NCBI GenBank assembly: GCA_032128875.1
Contig: JAVLKG010000002.1
Span: forward strand, 128,001-192,000
DNA: 64,000 nucleotides
Reading direction: 5' to 3'
DNA from: Candidatus Melainabacteria bacterium 17Bon1m
GTDB lineage: Bacteria > Cyanobacteriota > Vampirovibrionia > Obscuribacterales > Obscuribacteraceae
Notes under the pieces: model-generated
Databases searched by the model: none
Told to the model about the DNA's origin: nothing
The model's input: only the letters and a program-made list of their open reading frames with translations
Made by a program: the position numbers and the translations under genes
In this document: positions 57,399 through 64,000 of the stretch, one piece after another
How the letters are laid out: each line of letters begins with the position of its first letter
How positions within the stretch are numbered: the stretch's first letter is position 1

Positions 57399-60300
57399 CT
57401 ACGTTTTCAAAAAATCATCGACAAAGATTTTTACTTTCTTGAATTCTTCTTGCAGTAGGCCTAGAGTGGCTTCTGCTGGTTCCCAAGCAGACTTTTTGGC
57501 TGATTGTTCGATTTCGAGGCTGAGTCTGGTCAGATTGTCGGCGCAAAGCACTGCGGACAAACCCTTCAGCTGGTGCGCTGTTGCTGCCAATTCTCTGTCA
57601 GACCGAGAATCTATTTGTGTTCTGGCTGATGCCAAGAGCTCCGTCGCCTCTGAGAGGAACATCTTGAGAATGTCGTGCAGGTCATCGTCTCCATAAAGTT
57701 TTCTCAGCTCATTGAGATTAATTGGCAGGGTCGCATCACCATTGACGCTATTTTTTGCGTCTCCTTTTGAGCTCTCATCTGTTGACATTTCCGGGTGCTC
57801 CGTCGAGGGCATTGGTTCCAGTGTGCTGTTGAGCGCCAAAGGTATCCATGAGGCGATTACTCGTCTCAATTGATCGTGGCCGACCGGCTTGCTCAAATAG
57901 TCGTCCATTCCTGATCGAATACAGCGCTCTCGGTCCGACGGCATAGCACCCGCAGTCATTGCCACAATTGGCACGCGCCCACCTGCAGTTTCTTCAAGCC
58001 GCCGAATTTCCAAGGTCGCTTCATAGCCGTCCATCTCCGGCATCTGGCAGTCCATAAAAATCGCATCGAAACGAGAATTTTTGTGATCCTCTGAGTGTTT
58101 TTGATTTTGCTTTTCAAACTCAGTAACAGCTTCTTGCCCGTTGGAGACAATCACTACATCCAGCCCGAACTTGCGCAATTGCCGCTCGGCGAGCTGCTGC
58201 AAGACTGGGTTATCTTCCGCAAGTAGCACTCTAAACTTGCCGTCTTTGGTTATCGGCGTTTCTGATTGAAACGCTCCTTTATAGACAAGATCATCGAGCG
58301 CGCGGTCAAAACCTAGTTCCACTGCCTCAGGCATCGACAAAATTTCTTGCCCGCGAAATCCTGGTTTCAAAACCACTTCCAACAGGTGCGCGCGCCGCAG
58401 CGGTTTTACAAGACACGCTGCTACTCCGTCTGTGACCGCTTTCTCCATTCGTTCTTTTTCATCAAATGATGCCACCAGCACCACTCGCCCGGCTGTCTCT
58501 GAGTGTGACTCTATGATCTTCTTCGCCAGCGCAAATCCATTGAAGCTGTCCTGTGACGCATCCACGATTGTGACCGTGTAATTGACTTTGTCGCGCACTG
58601 CTTGCGCCAGCAATTCGTGCGCTTCTTCCGGACCTGCGGCTTCGGCAACTTTGATTCCGGCGCTGGATAAATAGGATGTGATGATGCTGCGTGAAGAGGG
58701 GGATGAATCGATAACAAGGACATCAAAAGGCACTACCACTTGCAATTGTTCTGCCTTCAAGTCTGGTTGTGCCGGCCATTTTTCTCGCTCTAGTGGCACA
58801 GTAAACCAGAAGGTCGAGCCTTTCTTTTCTTCGCTCGAAACCCCGATTTCACCGCCCATCATCTCCACGAGGCGTTTGCTGATTGACAGTCCCAGTCCGG
58901 TGCCGCCGTATTTGCGTGTCGTGGATCCATCCGCTTGCGCAAACGGCTGGAAGAGGCGTTTTCTTGCTGCTTCCGACAAACCTATGCCTGTGTCGGTCAC
59001 TTGAAATAGGATGACGACGCGCTCATCTGATTCTCTAAACTTCGAAGCTTTGACCAGAATTTCGCCGTTTTCAGTAAACTTAATTGCGTTGCTCGCTAGA
59101 TTGAGCAGTACTTGACGCAGACGCACCGGGTCGCCTTTGACATATTGCGGAATAGACGGATCGCAAAAAGTCATCAACGCCAGCCGCTTGCGACGCGCCG
59201 ACGATGCCAACCAGTCCGCGCACCCTTCGACAATCGAGCGGACATTCAAATCGATGACTTCCAATTCCAACCTTCCTGCTTCCATCTTCGAGAAGTCGAG
59301 AATGTCATTGATGATAGTCAAAAGTGATTGCGCAGACTCGTTGACGATTTTGACAAAACTGCTTTGCTCGCTGGAAAGCGTAGTATCCATGAGCAATTCG
59401 GTCATGCCCAGAACAGCAGAAATCGGCGTACGAACCTCGTGTGAAATGTTCGCAACGAATTCCGACTTCAATTTTGATGCTTCCAGCGCTTCGTCGTACG
59501 CGAGTTCTAGTTTGTGAGTGAGGATTTCAAGTTCTTGGTTGACGGCGGCTAGAATGCTGACACGCTGAGCAAGGTCCTCGTTGAGTTGTTTTACTTTGTC
59601 TTCCGCCGCCTTCAGGTCGGAAATATCCATCAAAAGCCCGTTCCAGAGAACATCGCCGTTTTCCAAATATTCGGGCGTGGACGTCGCGCGCACATATTTC
59701 ATTGTGCTGCCGATTAAAATACGCATCTCGAATTTGAAAACCGACATTGATGCCGCTGATTTTTCAATCGCTTCATTCAGAGGACCGCGATCGTCAGGGT
59801 GAATGTTGACGAATGCGAGATTAGAGTCGTTCTCGATTTCGTGGCGTTCAAAGCCGAACAATGCACGGCAGCTCTCGCTGATGTACGGGAAATGATAGGA
59901 GTTGTCGCTCTTTTTCTTCAGGAATTGATAAATGACGCCAGGCAAATGTCGCGCCACATTATTGATGCGCGCGCTTACGTCTTCCAGCTGCGCTTCAGTT
60001 TGGCGACGCAGTGTTATATCATGCGCGACACCGTAGATGAGATTTGTCTCTATGTTAGAAGACGCGCTCCACATCAGCCATTTGATGCTGCCGTCTTTGG
60101 CTATATAGCGGTTTTCAAAGAAGTGAATGTTCTTTCCGTTAGTGAGGAATTCGGCTTGTGCGGCAGTGGCTTCGCGATCTTCCGGGTGAATAAGTTCCAG
60201 ATAGGGGCGCGAAAGCAGCTCTTCCTGTGAGTAGCCTAATACTTTGGTCCACTCTGGATTTACCTGTTTGAAGTAGCCGTCAAATCCTGCGACGCAGAAG

Positions 60301-61127
60301 AGTTCGTTAGAAAGCGTGAAGAAGATGTTTGCTTCAGCCAGCTCGCGCGTGCGCTCTTCGACTTTTGTTTCCAGGTCGGCATGCGCCGCGAGCAAACTGT
60401 CCTCTGCTCTTTTTCTGTCTGTGATGTCTTGGCTGAAAACCATGACGCCGGTAATTTTTCCATCCTTGTCTCTGAGCGGAATTTTGTCCACTAAAAGCCA
60501 GAGAATTTCGCCGGCTGAATTCACATATCGGTCGACAATGCCGAATTTCGCTTCGCCGGAATTGATGACACTTAGGTCGTCTTTGTGATACTTTGCAGCG
60601 TCTTCAGGATAAAGGTCGTAAGTCGATTTCCCGACGATGGTTTCCGTCGTATAGCCCATCGATTCGGCAGCCGGCTTGTTGGCGCGCAAAATGATGTTGT
60701 GGGGGTCCTTGTACCACAGCAATGCAGGCACATTGTCAAAAATAATTTGCTGTTCGGCTCTCGCCGCTCTTTCTTGCTGGACGAAATCGGTCAAATCGAC
60801 CGTCATTCCAAAGAGTTTCGTTTTCCCTTCTTTGATTTGAATATTGATGAGATCTTTGAGAAAGATCGTCTCGCCAGTCGGTTTTTTCCATTCATAAACC
60901 TCGGCCGCGCCGCTCGTCGCAAACCAATTCGCGTCAATCGTCGCTCCTGAGTCCAGAGCGTTCTTGATTCCAGGGTTTATAAAAGATGTTTTCCCCTGCA
61001 AAATCTCTTCTGCGGAATATCCCAGAAGCTTTTTTGCAGGCGTGCTTACAAAGGTGAAACGAAAGGGGGCAAGCTCTGCCTCCCAGATAACGCCGTCTAG
61101 GCTCTCTAAGATTTTTTTGTCAGTCAT
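57399..61127 (-). CDS. Hybrid histidine kinase: multiple PAS, HisKA/HATPase, two receivers, Hpt
   Basis: IHPEDR/IHPDDR PAS, SHEVRTP, GGTGLGL, MDCQMP, AHQLKG. Confidence 0.95.
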   Translation of the reverse strand: MTDKKILESLDGVIWEAELAPFRFTFVSTPAKKLLGYSAEEILQGKTSFINPGIKNALDSGATIDANWFATSGAAEVYEWKKPTGETIFLKDLINIQIKEGKTKLFGMTVDLTDFVQQERAARAEQQIIFDNVPALLWYKDPHNIILRANKPAAESMGYTTETIVGKSTYDLYPEDAAKYHKDDLSVINSGEAKFGIVDRYVNSAGEILWLLVDKIPLRDKDGKITGVMVFSQDITDRKRAEDSLLAAHADLETKVEERTRELAEANIFFTLSNELFCVAGFDGYFKQVNPEWTKVLGYSQEELLSRPYLELIHPEDREATAAQAEFLTNGKNIHFFENRYIAKDGSIKWLMWSASSNIETNLIYGVAHDITLRRQTEAQLEDVSARINNVARHLPGVIYQFLKKKSDNSYHFPYISESCRALFGFERHEIENDSNLAFVNIHPDDRGPLNEAIEKSAASMSVFKFEMRILIGSTMKYVRATSTPEYLENGDVLWNGLLMDISDLKAAEDKVKQLNEDLAQRVSILAAVNQELEILTHKLELAYDEALEASKLKSEFVANISHEVRTPISAVLGMTELLMDTTLSSEQSSFVKIVNESAQSLLTIINDILDFSKMEAGRLELEVIDLNVRSIVEGCADWLASSARRKRLALMTFCDPSIPQYVKGDPVRLRQVLLNLASNAIKFTENGEILVKASKFRESDERVVILFQVTDTGIGLSEAARKRLFQPFAQADGSTTRKYGGTGLGLSISKRLVEMMGGEIGVSSEEKKGSTFWFTVPLEREKWPAQPDLKAEQLQVVVPFDVLVIDSSPSSRSIITSYLSSAGIKVAEAAGPEEAHELLAQAVRDKVNYTVTIVDASQDSFNGFALAKKIIESHSETAGRVVLVASFDEKERMEKAVTDGVAACLVKPLRRAHLLEVVLKPGFRGQEILSMPEAVELGFDRALDDLVYKGAFQSETPITKDGKFRVLLAEDNPVLQQLAERQLRKFGLDVVIVSNGQEAVTEFEKQNQKHSEDHKNSRFDAIFMDCQMPEMDGYEATLEIRRLEETAGGRVPIVAMTAGAMPSDRERCIRSGMDDYLSKPVGHDQLRRVIASWIPLALNSTLEPMPSTEHPEMSTDESSKGDAKNSVNGDATLPINLNELRKLYGDDDLHDILKMFLSEATELLASARTQIDSRSDRELAATAHQLKGLSAVLCADNLTRLSLEIEQSAKKSAWEPAEATLGLLQEEFKKVKIFVDDFLKT

Positions 61128-61163
61128 TTAATGGTCGGAGCCATATGCCGGAAAGAAACCAAT

Positions 61164-61218
61164 AAATCCATTCAAACCCGTCTAGAGCTAATCAGACCTA
61201 TCCAAATCCATTCAAACC
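61164..61218. promoter_or_regulatory. Perfect 15-bp direct repeat upstream of the hybrid kinase, possible operator
   Basis: AAATCCATTCAAACC at 61164 and 61204. Confidence 0.35.
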
Positions 61219-61437
61219 AAGTTCTATCCAGGTTGAAGTGTAAAATTCAAGTTTCTCCGCAATATCCAGCATAGCTCACCCGACAGGAAGGCGGATCTAT
61301 TAATGAACTTGCCGGGCAAGATCGCTACATTTCTATGTAGGTCTCCGGGTAATAGCGCATCTACTTGTTAACTGGTTGTCGGGTAGCTGCGCCGAATTCC
61401 TTGACCTATCACTGCAACTTACTGGAAACTCTGAAAT

Positions 61438-62004
61438 ATGCGACGCCGTCCCCCTCAAATCATTGCCATCTGCGGTGGCTCCGGCTCCGGCAAATCCACC
61501 CTGGCGCGCAAGTTCGTCGGCGCGGCTGTGCTGGCAACCGACAGCTTCTATAAGGATATTGACGATTTAAAGCCCCGAGAGGACGGTACTTTCGATTTCG
61601 ACCACCCAGACGCTGTAGATTTGGACGAGTGCGCCGACGCGTGCATTAAACTTGCCGATGGCGAGGACATTATGATTCCGGTGTACGAGATGCGCAGCGC
61701 TAAGCGAGTTGGTCAGCAGATGGTGCCGGCTCCAACGAATTCTATTGTTGTGATTGAAGGCATTTACGCTTTCCACAATCCGCTGCACGAAATCGCGACG
61801 CTTCGTATCTTTATAGATACTCCAATCGATCAGCGCATGGCTCGCAGACTGCGTCGGGACGTAGAACGCGGGCGATCGACTCTAGAGTCGATTCAGTATA
61901 GTCTGCACGTTGAGGAAGCTTATTCGCGTTACGTTGAGCCAATGAGACATCTTGCCGACCTTATTTTGATGGGTGAAGAGATGCGAGGCAGTTTTTCGCT
62001 GTAG
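61438..62004 (+). CDS. udk: Uridine kinase family protein
   Basis: GGSGSGKST, DSFYKD, FDHPDAVD, IEGI, RRLRRDVERGR. Confidence 0.8.
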   Translation: MRRRPPQIIAICGGSGSGKSTLARKFVGAAVLATDSFYKDIDDLKPREDGTFDFDHPDAVDLDECADACIKLADGEDIMIPVYEMRSAKRVGQQMVPAPTNSIVVIEGIYAFHNPLHEIATLRIFIDTPIDQRMARRLRRDVERGRSTLESIQYSLHVEEAYSRYVEPMRHLADLILMGEEMRGSFSL

Positions 62005-62133
62005 CTCACCGCAATTCGCTGCAATACGCTGCAAGTCAGTGAAATCCGCGAGCAGTCCACTTAAATCTGCTGCAGTAATTAGTTAAGGACACTGGTGTCG
62101 TCGCCATTTTGAGGGGAAACAGAGGCTTTTATC

Positions 62134-63450
62134 GTGCAACTGAAGAAGCTTGATAATGCTCTGATTCTGATCTTCATTCTAGCCGCGCTTCTAGTGAGAG
62201 TGCCCTTTCTCTTCATCGTGCCCATGGTTGAGGCGCCCGATGAATATGCTCACTTCTGGGTTACAAAATTTTTGAGTGAAAACTTCACCGCGCCGGACGC
62301 CGCGCAGGTTGCGGCGGGCGGTCCATCTGCCGTTTATGGCTCACTGCCGCCTTTTGCTTACCTTCCACATGTGCTCTTTTCGCACTTAATTCCGGGTGTC
62401 GATATCTCCTTTTCCGAACGCATCGGTAGCATCCTTGGTGGACTCGTTACAGTCTTTGCTGCGTGTCGCATAAGCGCATTGCTGTTTGCCTCTAATCGTG
62501 CTCTTCGTCTTGCGCTTCCTCTGTGCGTTGTCCTGCATCCTCAATTTGGCTTCGTCAATGCATATTGCAATAGTGACTCTACCGCGTGTGCTTTTGCTTC
62601 GCTTTTGATTTGGACGAGCCTCGTGGTGATCTTTCGTGGACCTGAATTGCGATACGCCGCATTTGCCGGAATCTTGTGCGCTTTTATCGCTTTGAGCAAG
62701 TTTTCGGCATTGGCGATTGTGCCAGTCATTTTCTTTGCAATAATCGCATCGTGTTGGATCTATAAAAAGAACGCCGTGCAGACGGTCGCTTCTTTGGGTT
62801 TGACAGCCCTCACTGCGGCACTCATTTGTGTGCCCTGGTTTGCCCGCAATGCTGCCGTCTTTCATGGTGACTGGTTGGGCACCATCACCATGCGCGACAC
62901 CTGGGCCAAAACGTTTAATCGCTCGATTGAGCCTGTTAGTTTATCGTCGGTACTAAAACAAAAGGTATGGTGGCAACAATTATTTTGCAGCTTTTGGGCT
63001 GTCTTTGGATATCAAAAACACTATCTGCCAGCCGGTTTTTACCTCGCCTACCTTTCTATGATTCTCATTTCTAGCGCCGGCACTTTCACACAAATTTCAC
63101 AAGCAGTTCGCGCGAGATCAATTTCCTTTGATTTCCTGAGACGCCTTAGAGAAGGTGATGATGTGAGGTTGAAACATCAAGCGGCCTGGCTCAGCTTGTG
63201 GGTTTGCGTCGCATTTAGTTGTGCAGGACTTCTCTATGCTGCAGTGCAAAATCTAGGTGGTCCGCAAGGTCGATATCTGTTTCCCAGCGAAATTGCATTC
63301 ATGGCAATTATCCTTTCTGGACTTTATGAAGTTAATCAGAAGTGGGGCACACGGCTGGTCTTTGCTTTCATCGGTCTTAATGGAGTGACACTCATTTATT
63401 CTATGATTTTGCTTTACTCTATGTTCGGCGTGCGCATAAAGCCCTATTGA
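62134..63450 (+). CDS. GT-C fold membrane glycosyltransferase-like (DUF2142/PMT-like)
   Basis: EAPDEYAH, YCNSD, LSK, QGRYLFP; paralogue of 47823. Confidence 0.75.
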   Translation: MQLKKLDNALILIFILAALLVRVPFLFIVPMVEAPDEYAHFWVTKFLSENFTAPDAAQVAAGGPSAVYGSLPPFAYLPHVLFSHLIPGVDISFSERIGSILGGLVTVFAACRISALLFASNRALRLALPLCVVLHPQFGFVNAYCNSDSTACAFASLLIWTSLVVIFRGPELRYAAFAGILCAFIALSKFSALAIVPVIFFAIIASCWIYKKNAVQTVASLGLTALTAALICVPWFARNAAVFHGDWLGTITMRDTWAKTFNRSIEPVSLSSVLKQKVWWQQLFCSFWAVFGYQKHYLPAGFYLAYLSMILISSAGTFTQISQAVRARSISFDFLRRLREGDDVRLKHQAAWLSLWVCVAFSCAGLLYAAVQNLGGPQGRYLFPSEIAFMAIILSGLYEVNQKWGTRLVFAFIGLNGVTLIYSMILLYSMFGVRIKPY

Positions 63451-63487
63451 ACTTCACCTTGATTACACGAAAAACACACAATTTTGT

Positions 63488-63861
63488 CACGCAAATCTAA
63501 GGTACCGGCCGCATTTGCGTGGGAATGCTTCTGATAGAAGAAAAAAATCGATAGTGGAGGAACGTGTGATTCCTAAGGCTAGAACCTCTGGAAGGTTTGC
63601 CACCTTGAGTGCGGTCGCCTGCCGCTGGCAAGGAACCGCTAAGTAATCGGTTGGTTTGCGGCAGTACTCTGCCATCATCCACGGTGAGTGCGAGGCTCAT
63701 TTAGGATTGGATAAGGTCAAAGCAGATCAGACTAGACCTTAGCAGACCAACCGATCAATTTTCAGAAAAGAAACTCTACTGAAGCTGTGGGCAAGTGCCG
63801 AGTGTCGGGTTTCCCCCGAACGAACGCCGAGGAGCCGTACGCGGCTCTTCGGTGCCTTTTT
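63488..63861 (+). ncRNA. Candidate ~370-nt structured RNA of unknown family
   Basis: Successive hairpins, a 14-bp stem (63646-63659 / 63742-63755) closing a multi-way junction, and a terminal terminator-like hairpin. Confidence 0.5.
63825..63861 (+). terminator. Intrinsic terminator-like hairpin
   Basis: CGCCGAGGAGCCG-TACG-CGGCTCTTCGGTG then CCTTTTT; G-U pairs favour +. Confidence 0.7.
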
Positions 63862-63864
63862 ACC

Positions 63865-63977
63865 TGCTGGCGTTGGGGCCTGCTGGCGTGGGGGCTTGCT
63901 GGCGTGGGGGCTTGCTGGCGTGGGGGCGCGTTGCACGCGCCCGATTTTTTTATGGTCGCGTGCAACGCGACCCCACG
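63865..63977. repeat. Tandem 16-bp REP-head units followed by an inverted REP pair
   Basis: TGCTGGCGTGGGGGCT-like x3-4, GTGGGGGCGCGTTGCACGCGCCC, GGTCGCGTGCAACGCGACCCCAC. Confidence 0.85.
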
Positions 63978-64000
63978 ATATTATTTAGGTCGCATGAATG

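Follow-up and report, generated by a model that had tools for sequence, protein, structure and literature searches.

A candidate structured RNA on the relic of a Tad-like gene cluster in a genus of Candidatus Obscuribacterales

Close to the right-hand end of the window (the whole stretch of DNA that was analysed, 64,000 nucleotides from Candidatus Melainabacteria bacterium 17Bon1m), two convergent genes are separated by a spacer of about 630 nt, the first two thirds of which are occupied by an element with several predicted hairpins. The initial annotation of this element proposed an undescribed RNA with a multi-way junction and its own terminator. The question raised by the locus is whether such an element functions as an independent RNA, serves the mRNA of a neighbouring gene, or is what remains of something else.

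Elements of the stretch and their folding

The spacer is bounded on the left by the gene of a 438-aa membrane protein (62134-63450, plus strand) and on the right by the minus-strand gene of a 495-aa proline-rich protein, which ends just beyond the window; neither protein has a Pfam match. When sequence and coordinates were checked, every hairpin of the initial annotation, as well as its closing stem, junction and terminator, was located where it had been claimed, within 63488-63861 of the plus strand, and the stretch is single-copy in its own 7.55-Mb genome. All features described below are on the plus strand unless stated otherwise.

Directly after the stop codon of the membrane-protein gene comes a conserved 5' block (63451-63529), the start of the leader of an ancestral gene cluster discussed below, which contains the near-invariant CTAAGGTACCGG (63497-63508) and GGGAATGCT (63521-63529). 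By eye, a CACG-type direct repeat occurs three times in this block, at intervals of about 11 nt, and these copies are possible regulator sites. The first hairpin, CACGCAAAT/ATTTGCGTG (63488-63496/63513-63521), is followed by AGGAA/TTCCT (63558-63562/63570-63574), AACCT/AGGTT (63583-63587/63593-63597) and GCGGT..TGCC/GGCA..ACCGC (63611-63623/63627-63639), the last of which is made of an outer helix GCGG/CCGC and an inner helix (C)TGCC/GGCA(A). A GGAGG (63556-63560) in front of a GTG (63564/63566) is partly paired in the AGGAA/TTCCT hairpin, and a reading frame of 26 codons starting with GTG extends over 63566-63646, with its TAA stop at 63644-63646. The junction domain (63646-63755) is closed by a stem of 14 bp with one G-U pair, ATCGGTTGGTTTGC/GCAGACCAACCGAT (63646-63659/63742-63755), and encloses the helix GGCAG/CTGCC (63660-63673), a second hairpin ATCC-TGAG/CTCA-GGAT (63677-63707) and a lineage-specific third, AAGGTC/GACCTT (63713-63740), situated inside an insertion (63709-63741). 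Further downstream, a small hairpin UCGGG-UUUCC-CCCGA followed by ACGAACG (63805-63826) contains the invariant CCCCCGAACGAAC, and an intrinsic terminator (63825-63861) closes the element with a 13-bp stem (63825-63854), a TACG loop and CCTTTTT, of which TTTTT occupies 63857-63861.

Folding of a 420-nt stretch on the plus strand gives -149.2 kcal/mol, compared with -126.1 +/- 6.0 kcal/mol for shuffled sequences (z -3.84; none of 100 shuffles as good), and for the core of 150 nt the z-score is -5.89, with none of 200 shuffles as good. Because the minus strand of the 420-nt stretch folds almost equally well (z -3.53; 0 of 100 shuffles as good), the strand is not given by thermodynamics alone. Such near-equal folding would also be expected of an element acting at the level of DNA, whose inverted repeat and conserved motifs are bound or recombined by a protein as double-stranded or hairpin DNA, and where template switching at quasi-palindromes keeps the arms complementary. 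The CACG-type repeats of the 5' block, as judged by eye, would suit a DNA-binding regulator, and template switching can mimic compensatory change. However, the non-Watson-Crick cells of the helix alignment described below are mostly G-U when read on the plus strand (25, versus 7 A-C), and the G-U pairs of the terminator are valid on the plus strand only; both observations favour the plus strand, in agreement with what the initial annotation had concluded from G-U pairs. The arms, moreover, are 57-82 nt apart with structured inserts between them, and there is a single copy per genome. We regard an element acting as DNA as improbable.

No known RNA family accounts for the element. The initial annotation saw no hallmark of RNase P, tmRNA, SRP or T-box RNAs, and our search of window positions 60000-64000 against Rfam 15 returned five matches at E <= 10, none of them near its gathering score; the sole match inside the element was osmY, with 15.3 bits where 46.9 are required. 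The same search of six related loci (20,233 bases) gave one match at E <= 1, located outside the element. Ribozymes, tRNA-like and other known RNAs were screened by these Rfam scans only. Like HEARO, OLE, GOLLD, ROOL, raiA, RNase P, tmRNA, SRP and T-box RNAs, the element combines a multi-helix junction with strongly conserved unpaired nucleotides, but unlike the large or ornate and the housekeeping RNAs of Rfam it matches no model, has a core of only about 120 nt and belongs to one genus.

Descent from a Tad-like gene cluster and its decay in the genus

Comparison of the flanks and the spacer with eight loci by blastn reveals the same two flanking genes and kept synteny. We denote the genome carrying the window as G000 and its sister as G011. 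In two sister species, G005 and G010, three intact genes are present between the same flanks, coding for proteins of 195 aa, 607-627 aa and 173-194 aa. The first of these proteins is small and TadE-like, the second is TadG-like and has Tad and vWA domains, and the third is again small. The 607-627-aa ORF matches the Pfam families Tad (PF13400, E 1.6e-5) and VWA (PF00092, E 2.9e-10) and is thus assigned as a TadG-like pseudopilin. The junction segment of the window matches within the 3' part of this ORF in both species, and blastn and tblastn place a relic of its codons ~490-550 at 63589-63693 of the window. With the intact vWA protein as query against seven spacers, tblastn gave E-values of 9e-9 for G007, 6e-7 for G011, 2e-6 for G003 and 3e-6 for G000, followed by 5e-4 for G008 and 0.15 for G006.

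These alignments identify 63451-63861 as a mosaic relic of the three-gene Tad-like cluster, which was lost through internal deletions. The 5' block aligns to leader nt 1-92 of the intact loci with 82-83% identity. Counted from the stop codon of the membrane-protein gene, nt 139-243 of G000 align to nt 2364-2469 of the intact locus of G010 (blastn, 70%, E 6e-11) and nt 161-243 to nt 2412-2494 of G005 (blastn, 75%, E 1e-12). In the intact locus the first gene begins at nt 142; in G007, nt 2-176 after the stop correspond to the leader and ~10 initial codons of that gene (intact nt 2-172) and nt 198-377 to vWA codons ~490-550, the ~2.2 kb between the two pieces being gone. The relic of G000 is shorter than that of G007, with nt 1-93, 139-243 and 292-310 mapping on the intact locus. 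About 60 of the ~607 vWA codons are left, and their frame is broken. Descent of the C-rich 3' block from the ..SDFRKRY.. codons of the last gene was not found by BLAST (E <= 0.05) or tblastn. By eye, in comparison with G005 and G002, such a descent looks plausible.

The mapping also bears on the GGAGG and the 26-codon GTG frame. The motif TGGAGGA..GTG is present as well in G007, G008 and the metagenome variant L087, where it precedes ~10 codons from the start of the first gene. Since the relic maps onto the leader and the start of the first gene, GGAGG and GTG are a fossil ribosome site, and the 26-codon frame, by the same alignments, is the old vWA frame running into a shared stop codon. This stop replaces the Tyr codon of ..AIYSVGL.., as TAA in G000 and G011 and as TAG in G007, G003 and L087; it is found at the same codon in five of the seven relic species, with frameshifts besides. 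Both features of the initial annotation exist, GGAGG being partly paired in a hairpin, but they are fossils and not a conserved small gene.

A small protein could nevertheless be sought in the 26-codon frame, in a 37-codon ORF of G007 and L087, or in a 63-codon ORF on the minus strand (63487-63678). The GGAGG in front of GTG, the ORFs ending at the shared stop in G000, G011, G003 and L087, the 37-aa frame that G007 and L087 have in common (by eye) and a minus-strand frame beginning MMAE.., open in several species, would all fit such a product. However, G008 is frameshifted, G003 stops early and the first ORF of G007 stops after 20 codons. Counted by codon phase, changes number 15/18/16 in six relic rows, as against 7/0/0 in four intact rows, where all seven changes fall at third codon positions; the even phases of the relics exclude coding constraint on either strand. 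No reading frame on either strand is open in all species. The broken frames and even phase counts lead us to reject small proteins on both strands, to which we assign hardly any probability, and the even phases together with the lack of a common open frame indicate that the constraint is at the level of nucleotides and non-coding.

The distribution of the element is narrow. When 61 genomes were searched at the DNA level, seven of the genus's 12 other members matched at E <= 1e-9 and G009 matched weakly, in the 5' block alone (E 0.002), while nothing better than E 0.02 appeared in the 48 genomes outside the genus. A covariance model of the element (see below) finds one copy per genome in eight of 13 genomes of the genus and no copy in 91 genomes of 36 other genera elsewhere in the family. 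On our reading of these searches, the candidate RNA domain is confined to one genus of Candidatus Obscuribacterales MAGs.

Inside the genus, the 5' block is found, partly decayed, in all 12 genomes aligned. G002 carries another relic without the junction, in which a portion of the leader and, frameshifted, ~45 codons from the end of the third gene remain, and in G009 and G004 everything is lost except part of the 5' block. G001 and G012 were left unjudged because their incomplete assemblies hold no close orthologue of the flanking gene. The cluster thus decays by different routes in different lineages of the genus. In a tree of the neighbouring membrane protein, built from 14 rows of which three are outgroups, only the groups (G000,G011), (G003,G008) and (G010,(G009,G004)) were resolved.

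The insertion at 63709-63741 is a further lineage difference. It measures 33-43 nt and is confined to G000 and G011; G007, G008, G003, G006, L087 and the intact genes lack it, and conservation is 0.00 over 63711-63740. Today's 3' arm owes its inner half to this insertion, and the stem survived the event. All three inner helices of the initial annotation are present in the window, but AAGGTC/GACCTT is specific to the lineage of G000 and G011.

Conservation and pairing in relics and living genes

A neutral yardstick is provided by the adjacent membrane-protein gene, whose four-fold sites have an identity of 0.31-0.50 between species (0.75 for G000-G011) and are near saturation. Across five species (G000, G011, G007, G003 and G008), 20 of 137 of these four-fold sites (15%) are invariant, as are 57% of all codon sites of the gene. 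The corresponding figures for the element are 54 of 88 positions (61%) in the junction block, 39 of 50 (78%) in the 3' block and 33 of 50 (66%) in the 5' block, so that the relic blocks are invariant 4-5 times more often than the four-fold sites of the adjacent gene. The conservation profile has three peaks, at 63486-63535, at 63611-63700 together with 63741-63760, and at 63801-63860. In the 5' block conservation reaches 0.85-0.95 over 63486-63530; by eye, the hairpin 63488-63496/63513-63521 itself is only loosely kept. The spacers between the peaks (63531-63560 and 63761-63800) have neutral-like values of 0.28-0.47, and their divergence to the neutral level argues against a recent transfer of the whole region.

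In the 3' block, the CCCCCGAACGAAC motif comprises 13 consecutive invariant columns in all eight relic rows, conservation is 0.95-1.00 over 63806-63825, and the motif has one syntenic copy per genome, the remaining matches being chance occurrences within genes. The terminator proposed by the initial annotation, a 13-bp stem with a U tract, was also found by a terminator scan, which classed it as intrinsic on 13 pairs (9 G-C), a loop of 4 and CCTTTTT. All eight sequences fold a hairpin of 11-13 bp here, with -18.9 to -31.1 kcal/mol and differing, covarying stem sequences; between G007 and G000, for example, both partners have changed in three pairs. G007 and L087 have only a weak U tract. Terminators were compared by single folds, MAFFT having put G007 and G006 out of register.

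For the part upstream of the terminator, nine sequences were aligned with MAFFT and six helices were placed on the alignment manually. Five of the sequences are relics and four are intact genes, among them three new variants from a metagenome scan (27 loci returned, five relevant). In these nine rows 91.5% of 305 cells are paired, versus 22-49% when the 3' partners are slid, and double-sided changes occur at four pairs, a number reached by one of 500 shuffles (1.1 +/- 0.8). The covariance model built from the trimmed nine-row alignment draws in G000 and G011; in the resulting eleven rows 91.6% of cells are paired and six pairs change on both sides, which is reached by five of 500 shuffles. In this eleven-row alignment (A5), fitted to the model, the row of G011 is mis-registered, with a wrong 3' arm; when the distal arm of G011 is taken by hand instead, all 13 of its positions are paired.

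The closing stem is the stem of minimum free energy in all eight species folded, where the same architecture is found throughout (z -2.4 to -5.9). It has double-sided changes at two pairs in nine sequences and at four in eleven, a C-G to U-A change being contributed by G000 and G011, and six of its pairs vary only to G-U. Every relative has the closing stem, GGCAG/CTGCC and the upstream GCGG/CCGC hairpin. The upstream hairpin (63611-63639) is predicted separately in eight of eight folded species and also by RNAalifold, with 97% of the cells paired in its helix 1 and 86-87% in helix 2, and pairs better in relics than in intact genes. RNAalifold recovers this hairpin together with helix 4 and a closing stem of 12 bp; in place of ATCC-TGAG/CTCA-GGAT it offers an invariant CAUCA/UGGUG hairpin, and the inner helices are ambiguous for this reason. 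Covariation contributes little to the RNAalifold energy (-0.77 of -38.6 kcal/mol). Among the 9-11 related sequences most pairs are invariant or change on one side only. Overall, there is moderate support from these alignments for helices kept by compensatory change beyond the controls: covariation among homologues, whose absence, together with that of a transcript, the initial annotation had named as an argument against its proposal, is found in the 9-11 sequences in the form of compensatory and G-U changes.

Pairing also differs between dead and living copies. In the relics G007 and G008 all 34 positions are paired, versus 30-32 of 34 in the intact genes; pairing therefore improved once coding constraint was lifted. 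G005 and G010 have a perfect inverted repeat of 12 bp, TCGGTTGGCCTG/CAGGCCAACCGA, in the codons of SVGL and AGQPI; orthologues in other genera (~50% identity) are without the inverted repeat and fold weakly. The nucleotide identity between G005 and G010 is 0.93-0.95 over L032 4583-4702, compared with 0.62-0.88 in the other windows of the gene, and along the intact locus only the leader is comparable to the junction region (identity up to 0.97). Among conserved residues, the fraction encoded by identical codons is 0.85-0.92 at 511-550 and mostly 0.3-0.6 elsewhere. The same 40 codons are under strong synonymous constraint in the intact genes, the strongest there, and the pieces that survive in the relics are those which already experienced extra constraint in the living cluster. 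The junction domain is homologous to the C-terminal part of a TadG-like vWA gene, but unlike that gene the remnant is under nucleotide-level and not protein-level constraint.

It might still be argued that the stretch is a neutral pseudogene remnant, whose hairpins are accidents of coding sequence without time to decay. It is certainly a gene relic, as its shared stop codon and frameshifts attest; the cluster decays in other ways in other lineages of the genus, and the 12-bp repeat could be a chance product of coding sequence. Against this stand the invariance of the blocks (61-78%, versus 15% of the four-fold sites in the same five species), the divergence of spacers in the same region to the neutral level, the improvement of pairing after the frame was lost, and compensatory changes which arose within the relic lineages. 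We consider a neutral remnant very improbable; the relic is not decaying neutrally. That a folded non-coding stretch has stayed almost unchanged in several relatives indicates that it probably has a function of its own as RNA.

Transcription, origin and meaning of the candidate RNA

Sequencing runs from one sample, three labelled as RNA and one as DNA, all yielded long contigs of even depth that break at identical positions; the RNA-labelled runs are genome-like and matched the DNA run, and their contigs cannot show transcript ends or strand. A consensus scan of the plus strand over 63300-64000 found no sigma-70-like promoter, and a terminator scan found none between the stop at 63450 and 63825. 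TAAGGT (63498-63503) caught our eye as a conceivable -10 element.

The two scans would fit a purely cis-acting role, in which the element is a long structured 3' UTR of the membrane-protein gene (62134-63450) with its terminator and is not active as a separate RNA. Such a UTR would halt transcription ahead of the convergent gene and protect the 3' end of the mRNA. The 5' block follows directly after the stop codon and is kept even in G009 and G004, and the terminator is located between convergent genes, in G003 only ~30 nt from the stop of the other gene. However, a stabilising hairpin needs pairing and not sequence, yet 13 columns of an unpaired stretch are invariant in eight of eight rows, and CTGCCAT and TGGTGAGT are invariant in nine of nine. 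Furthermore, the junction was already synonymously constrained in the intact cluster, where it is ~2.4 kb downstream of the stop of the membrane-protein gene, and three species do without the junction. A role confined to cis is thus a serious but rather unlikely explanation.

UhpU is reportedly an sRNA from the 3' end of an mRNA. Like the sRNAs of this type, the element is structured, is situated at the end of a transcription unit, shares its intrinsic terminator and carries a conserved unpaired motif just upstream of it; unlike them, it is not found downstream of a living gene's stop as part of that gene's mRNA but consists of former coding sequence of vanished genes.

An undescribed structured RNA of the plus strand is the best reading of the lack of an Rfam match taken together with conservation, kept pairing and a covarying terminator. 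We hold it somewhat probable that the stretch is a structured non-coding RNA which arose in the mRNA of the TadG-like gene, was kept by selection after deletion of the cluster and ends at the terminator. The proposal of an undescribed non-coding RNA by the initial annotation accordingly holds in that the element matches no known family, is conserved and paired, and has a terminator, but it was not born freely from non-coding DNA; it is a gene relic. The structured domain would have originated within the vWA mRNA when the ancestor of the genus lived, with a role of its own, and owing to that role would have been retained, with improved pairing, when the genes died. Transcription today may start from the ancestral leader region or result from read-through from the membrane-protein gene, and the transcript would end at the terminator (63825-63861). 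The product would most likely act as a regulatory or scaffold RNA, with the invariant unpaired CUGCCAUCAUCC, GGUGAGUGCGAGG and UUUCCCCCGAACGAACG as possible contact surfaces for a protein or another RNA. The element is dispensable, as G009, G004 and G002 are without the junction.

When reverse complements of five conserved motifs were searched for in the whole genome (k=10-12), sites occurred near the chance number and no partner emerged; a seed of k=11 gave 21 matches, eight of them the locus itself, where ~29 are expected. An excess of complementary sites for GATGATGGCAG may reflect words which are frequent in frame in genes. As regards a possible sponge for a CsrA-type protein, the eight GGA triplets counted by eye in ~410 nt are about the chance number. 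A literature search found no paper on sRNAs in Obscuribacterales.

A precedent for the origin proposed here is available in enterobacteria. According to Krieger et al. (2022, PMC8825220), the sRNA OxyS evolved from a fragment of a peroxidase mRNA, and the same paper gives protein-coding genes as one proposed source of new bacterial non-coding RNAs. As in the case of OxyS as that paper presents it, the candidate is an RNA from a piece of a replaced coding gene, at the same locus and beside the ancestral upstream region, and relatives still have the parental gene. The hallmark of an OxyS-type origin, homology with part of a gene that relatives keep intact at the same locus, is found here. Unlike OxyS, however, the retained piece is a large junction domain which was already synonymously constrained in the living gene, several pieces of a three-gene cluster make up the whole as a mosaic, and the lineage is an uncultured genus of Obscuribacterales.

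Tentatively, and with less confidence than we have in the candidate RNA as such, the junction domain may be viewed as a dual-use module, which was a regulatory or scaffold RNA structure first in TadG-like coding sequence and then, once the whole cluster around it was deleted, a free-standing non-coding RNA. If this is true, the genus keeps the state before the transition (G005 and G010), the state after it (G000 and six others), another relic (G002) and the state in which all is gone (G009 and G004). The locus would then give a clear comparative series for the birth of an RNA from a protein-coding gene, in which the order of events can be tested: constrained in the living gene, better paired as a frame-less relic after the death of the gene, and missing in other species. 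A practical lesson is that intergenic 'novel RNAs' can be gene relics and that gene relics can stay functional. For the Obscuribacterales, which are non-photosynthetic and form a sister lineage of cyanobacteria, the element would also be a first candidate for a regulatory RNA.

A separate relic in G002 and sequence features within the relics

A separate relic of the same Tad-like cluster is present in the species G002, at positions ~340–760 of locus L102. Here, a portion of the leader (the stretch upstream of the first gene of the cluster) runs into the final ~45 codons of gene three, with a frameshift. After this fused segment, a hairpin unit of ~50 nt, which begins with GGCGAACGCGATAGCGTTCGCTGTCGC, occurs three times in tandem.

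Inspection by eye reveals three direct repeats of the CACG(A/C/T)AA type with a spacing of ~11 nt, both in window 63451–63497 and in the leaders of L032 (the locus of the sister species G005, where the cluster is intact) and L033. The repeats are located, also by eye, immediately upstream of the invariant CTAAGGTACCGG. They could form a regulator binding array at the ancestral promoter.

A 37-codon plus-strand ORF of ~110 nt is common to two relic-type loci, L034 of G007 and L087, a variant from a metagenome; it lies in the vWA relic, shifted relative to the original reading frame, and closes at the TGA within GGTGAGTG. Start and stop positions are identical in the two loci and the peptides begin with MARPEWEV and MDRPKWEV. 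Because this frame is closed in the source genome (G000) and in G003 and G008, the ORF has probably arisen as a side effect of conservation at the nucleotide level.

Repeats beyond the terminator and read depth

Beyond the terminator, the remainder of the spacer between the membrane-protein gene and the convergent proline-rich-protein gene consists of two tandem arrays. The first contains 4.1 copies of the 16-nt unit CCTGCTGGCGTGGGGG and spans window 63863–63927 (1864–1928 in L002, the source-contig locus), while the second contains 3.9 copies of a 33-nt unit found at no other location in the genome and extends from window 63942 to past the window end (L002 1943–2073). A long hairpin is formed on the near-palindrome GCGTTGCACGCG at window 63919–63978, a region where contig depth is ~6 times the flanking depth. 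This 12-mer, present in 112 copies versus ~1 expected in the 7.55-Mb genome, appears to represent a family of REP-like repeats dispersed across it.

Three runs from a plankton sample filed as RNA-Seq (X2–X4) were mapped on L002 1–4500. As regards the source organism they behave like genomic DNA; their contigs reach 137 kb in length, are uniformly deep across genes and spacers, and agree with the DNA run from the same sample.

Surroundings of the intact cluster and the TadG-like family

On the 3′ side of its intact cluster (L032 5417–7001), G005 lacks the convergent proline-rich gene of the other species; in its place are an ORF of 153 aa and a GTPase-like gene on the minus strand, so the locus has undergone a local rearrangement.

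TadG-like proteins of ~600 aa, combining Tad and vWA regions, are multi-copy across the family, with matches in 60 of the 61 genomes and up to 13 matches per genome; the source genome itself retains four more distant matches at other sites.
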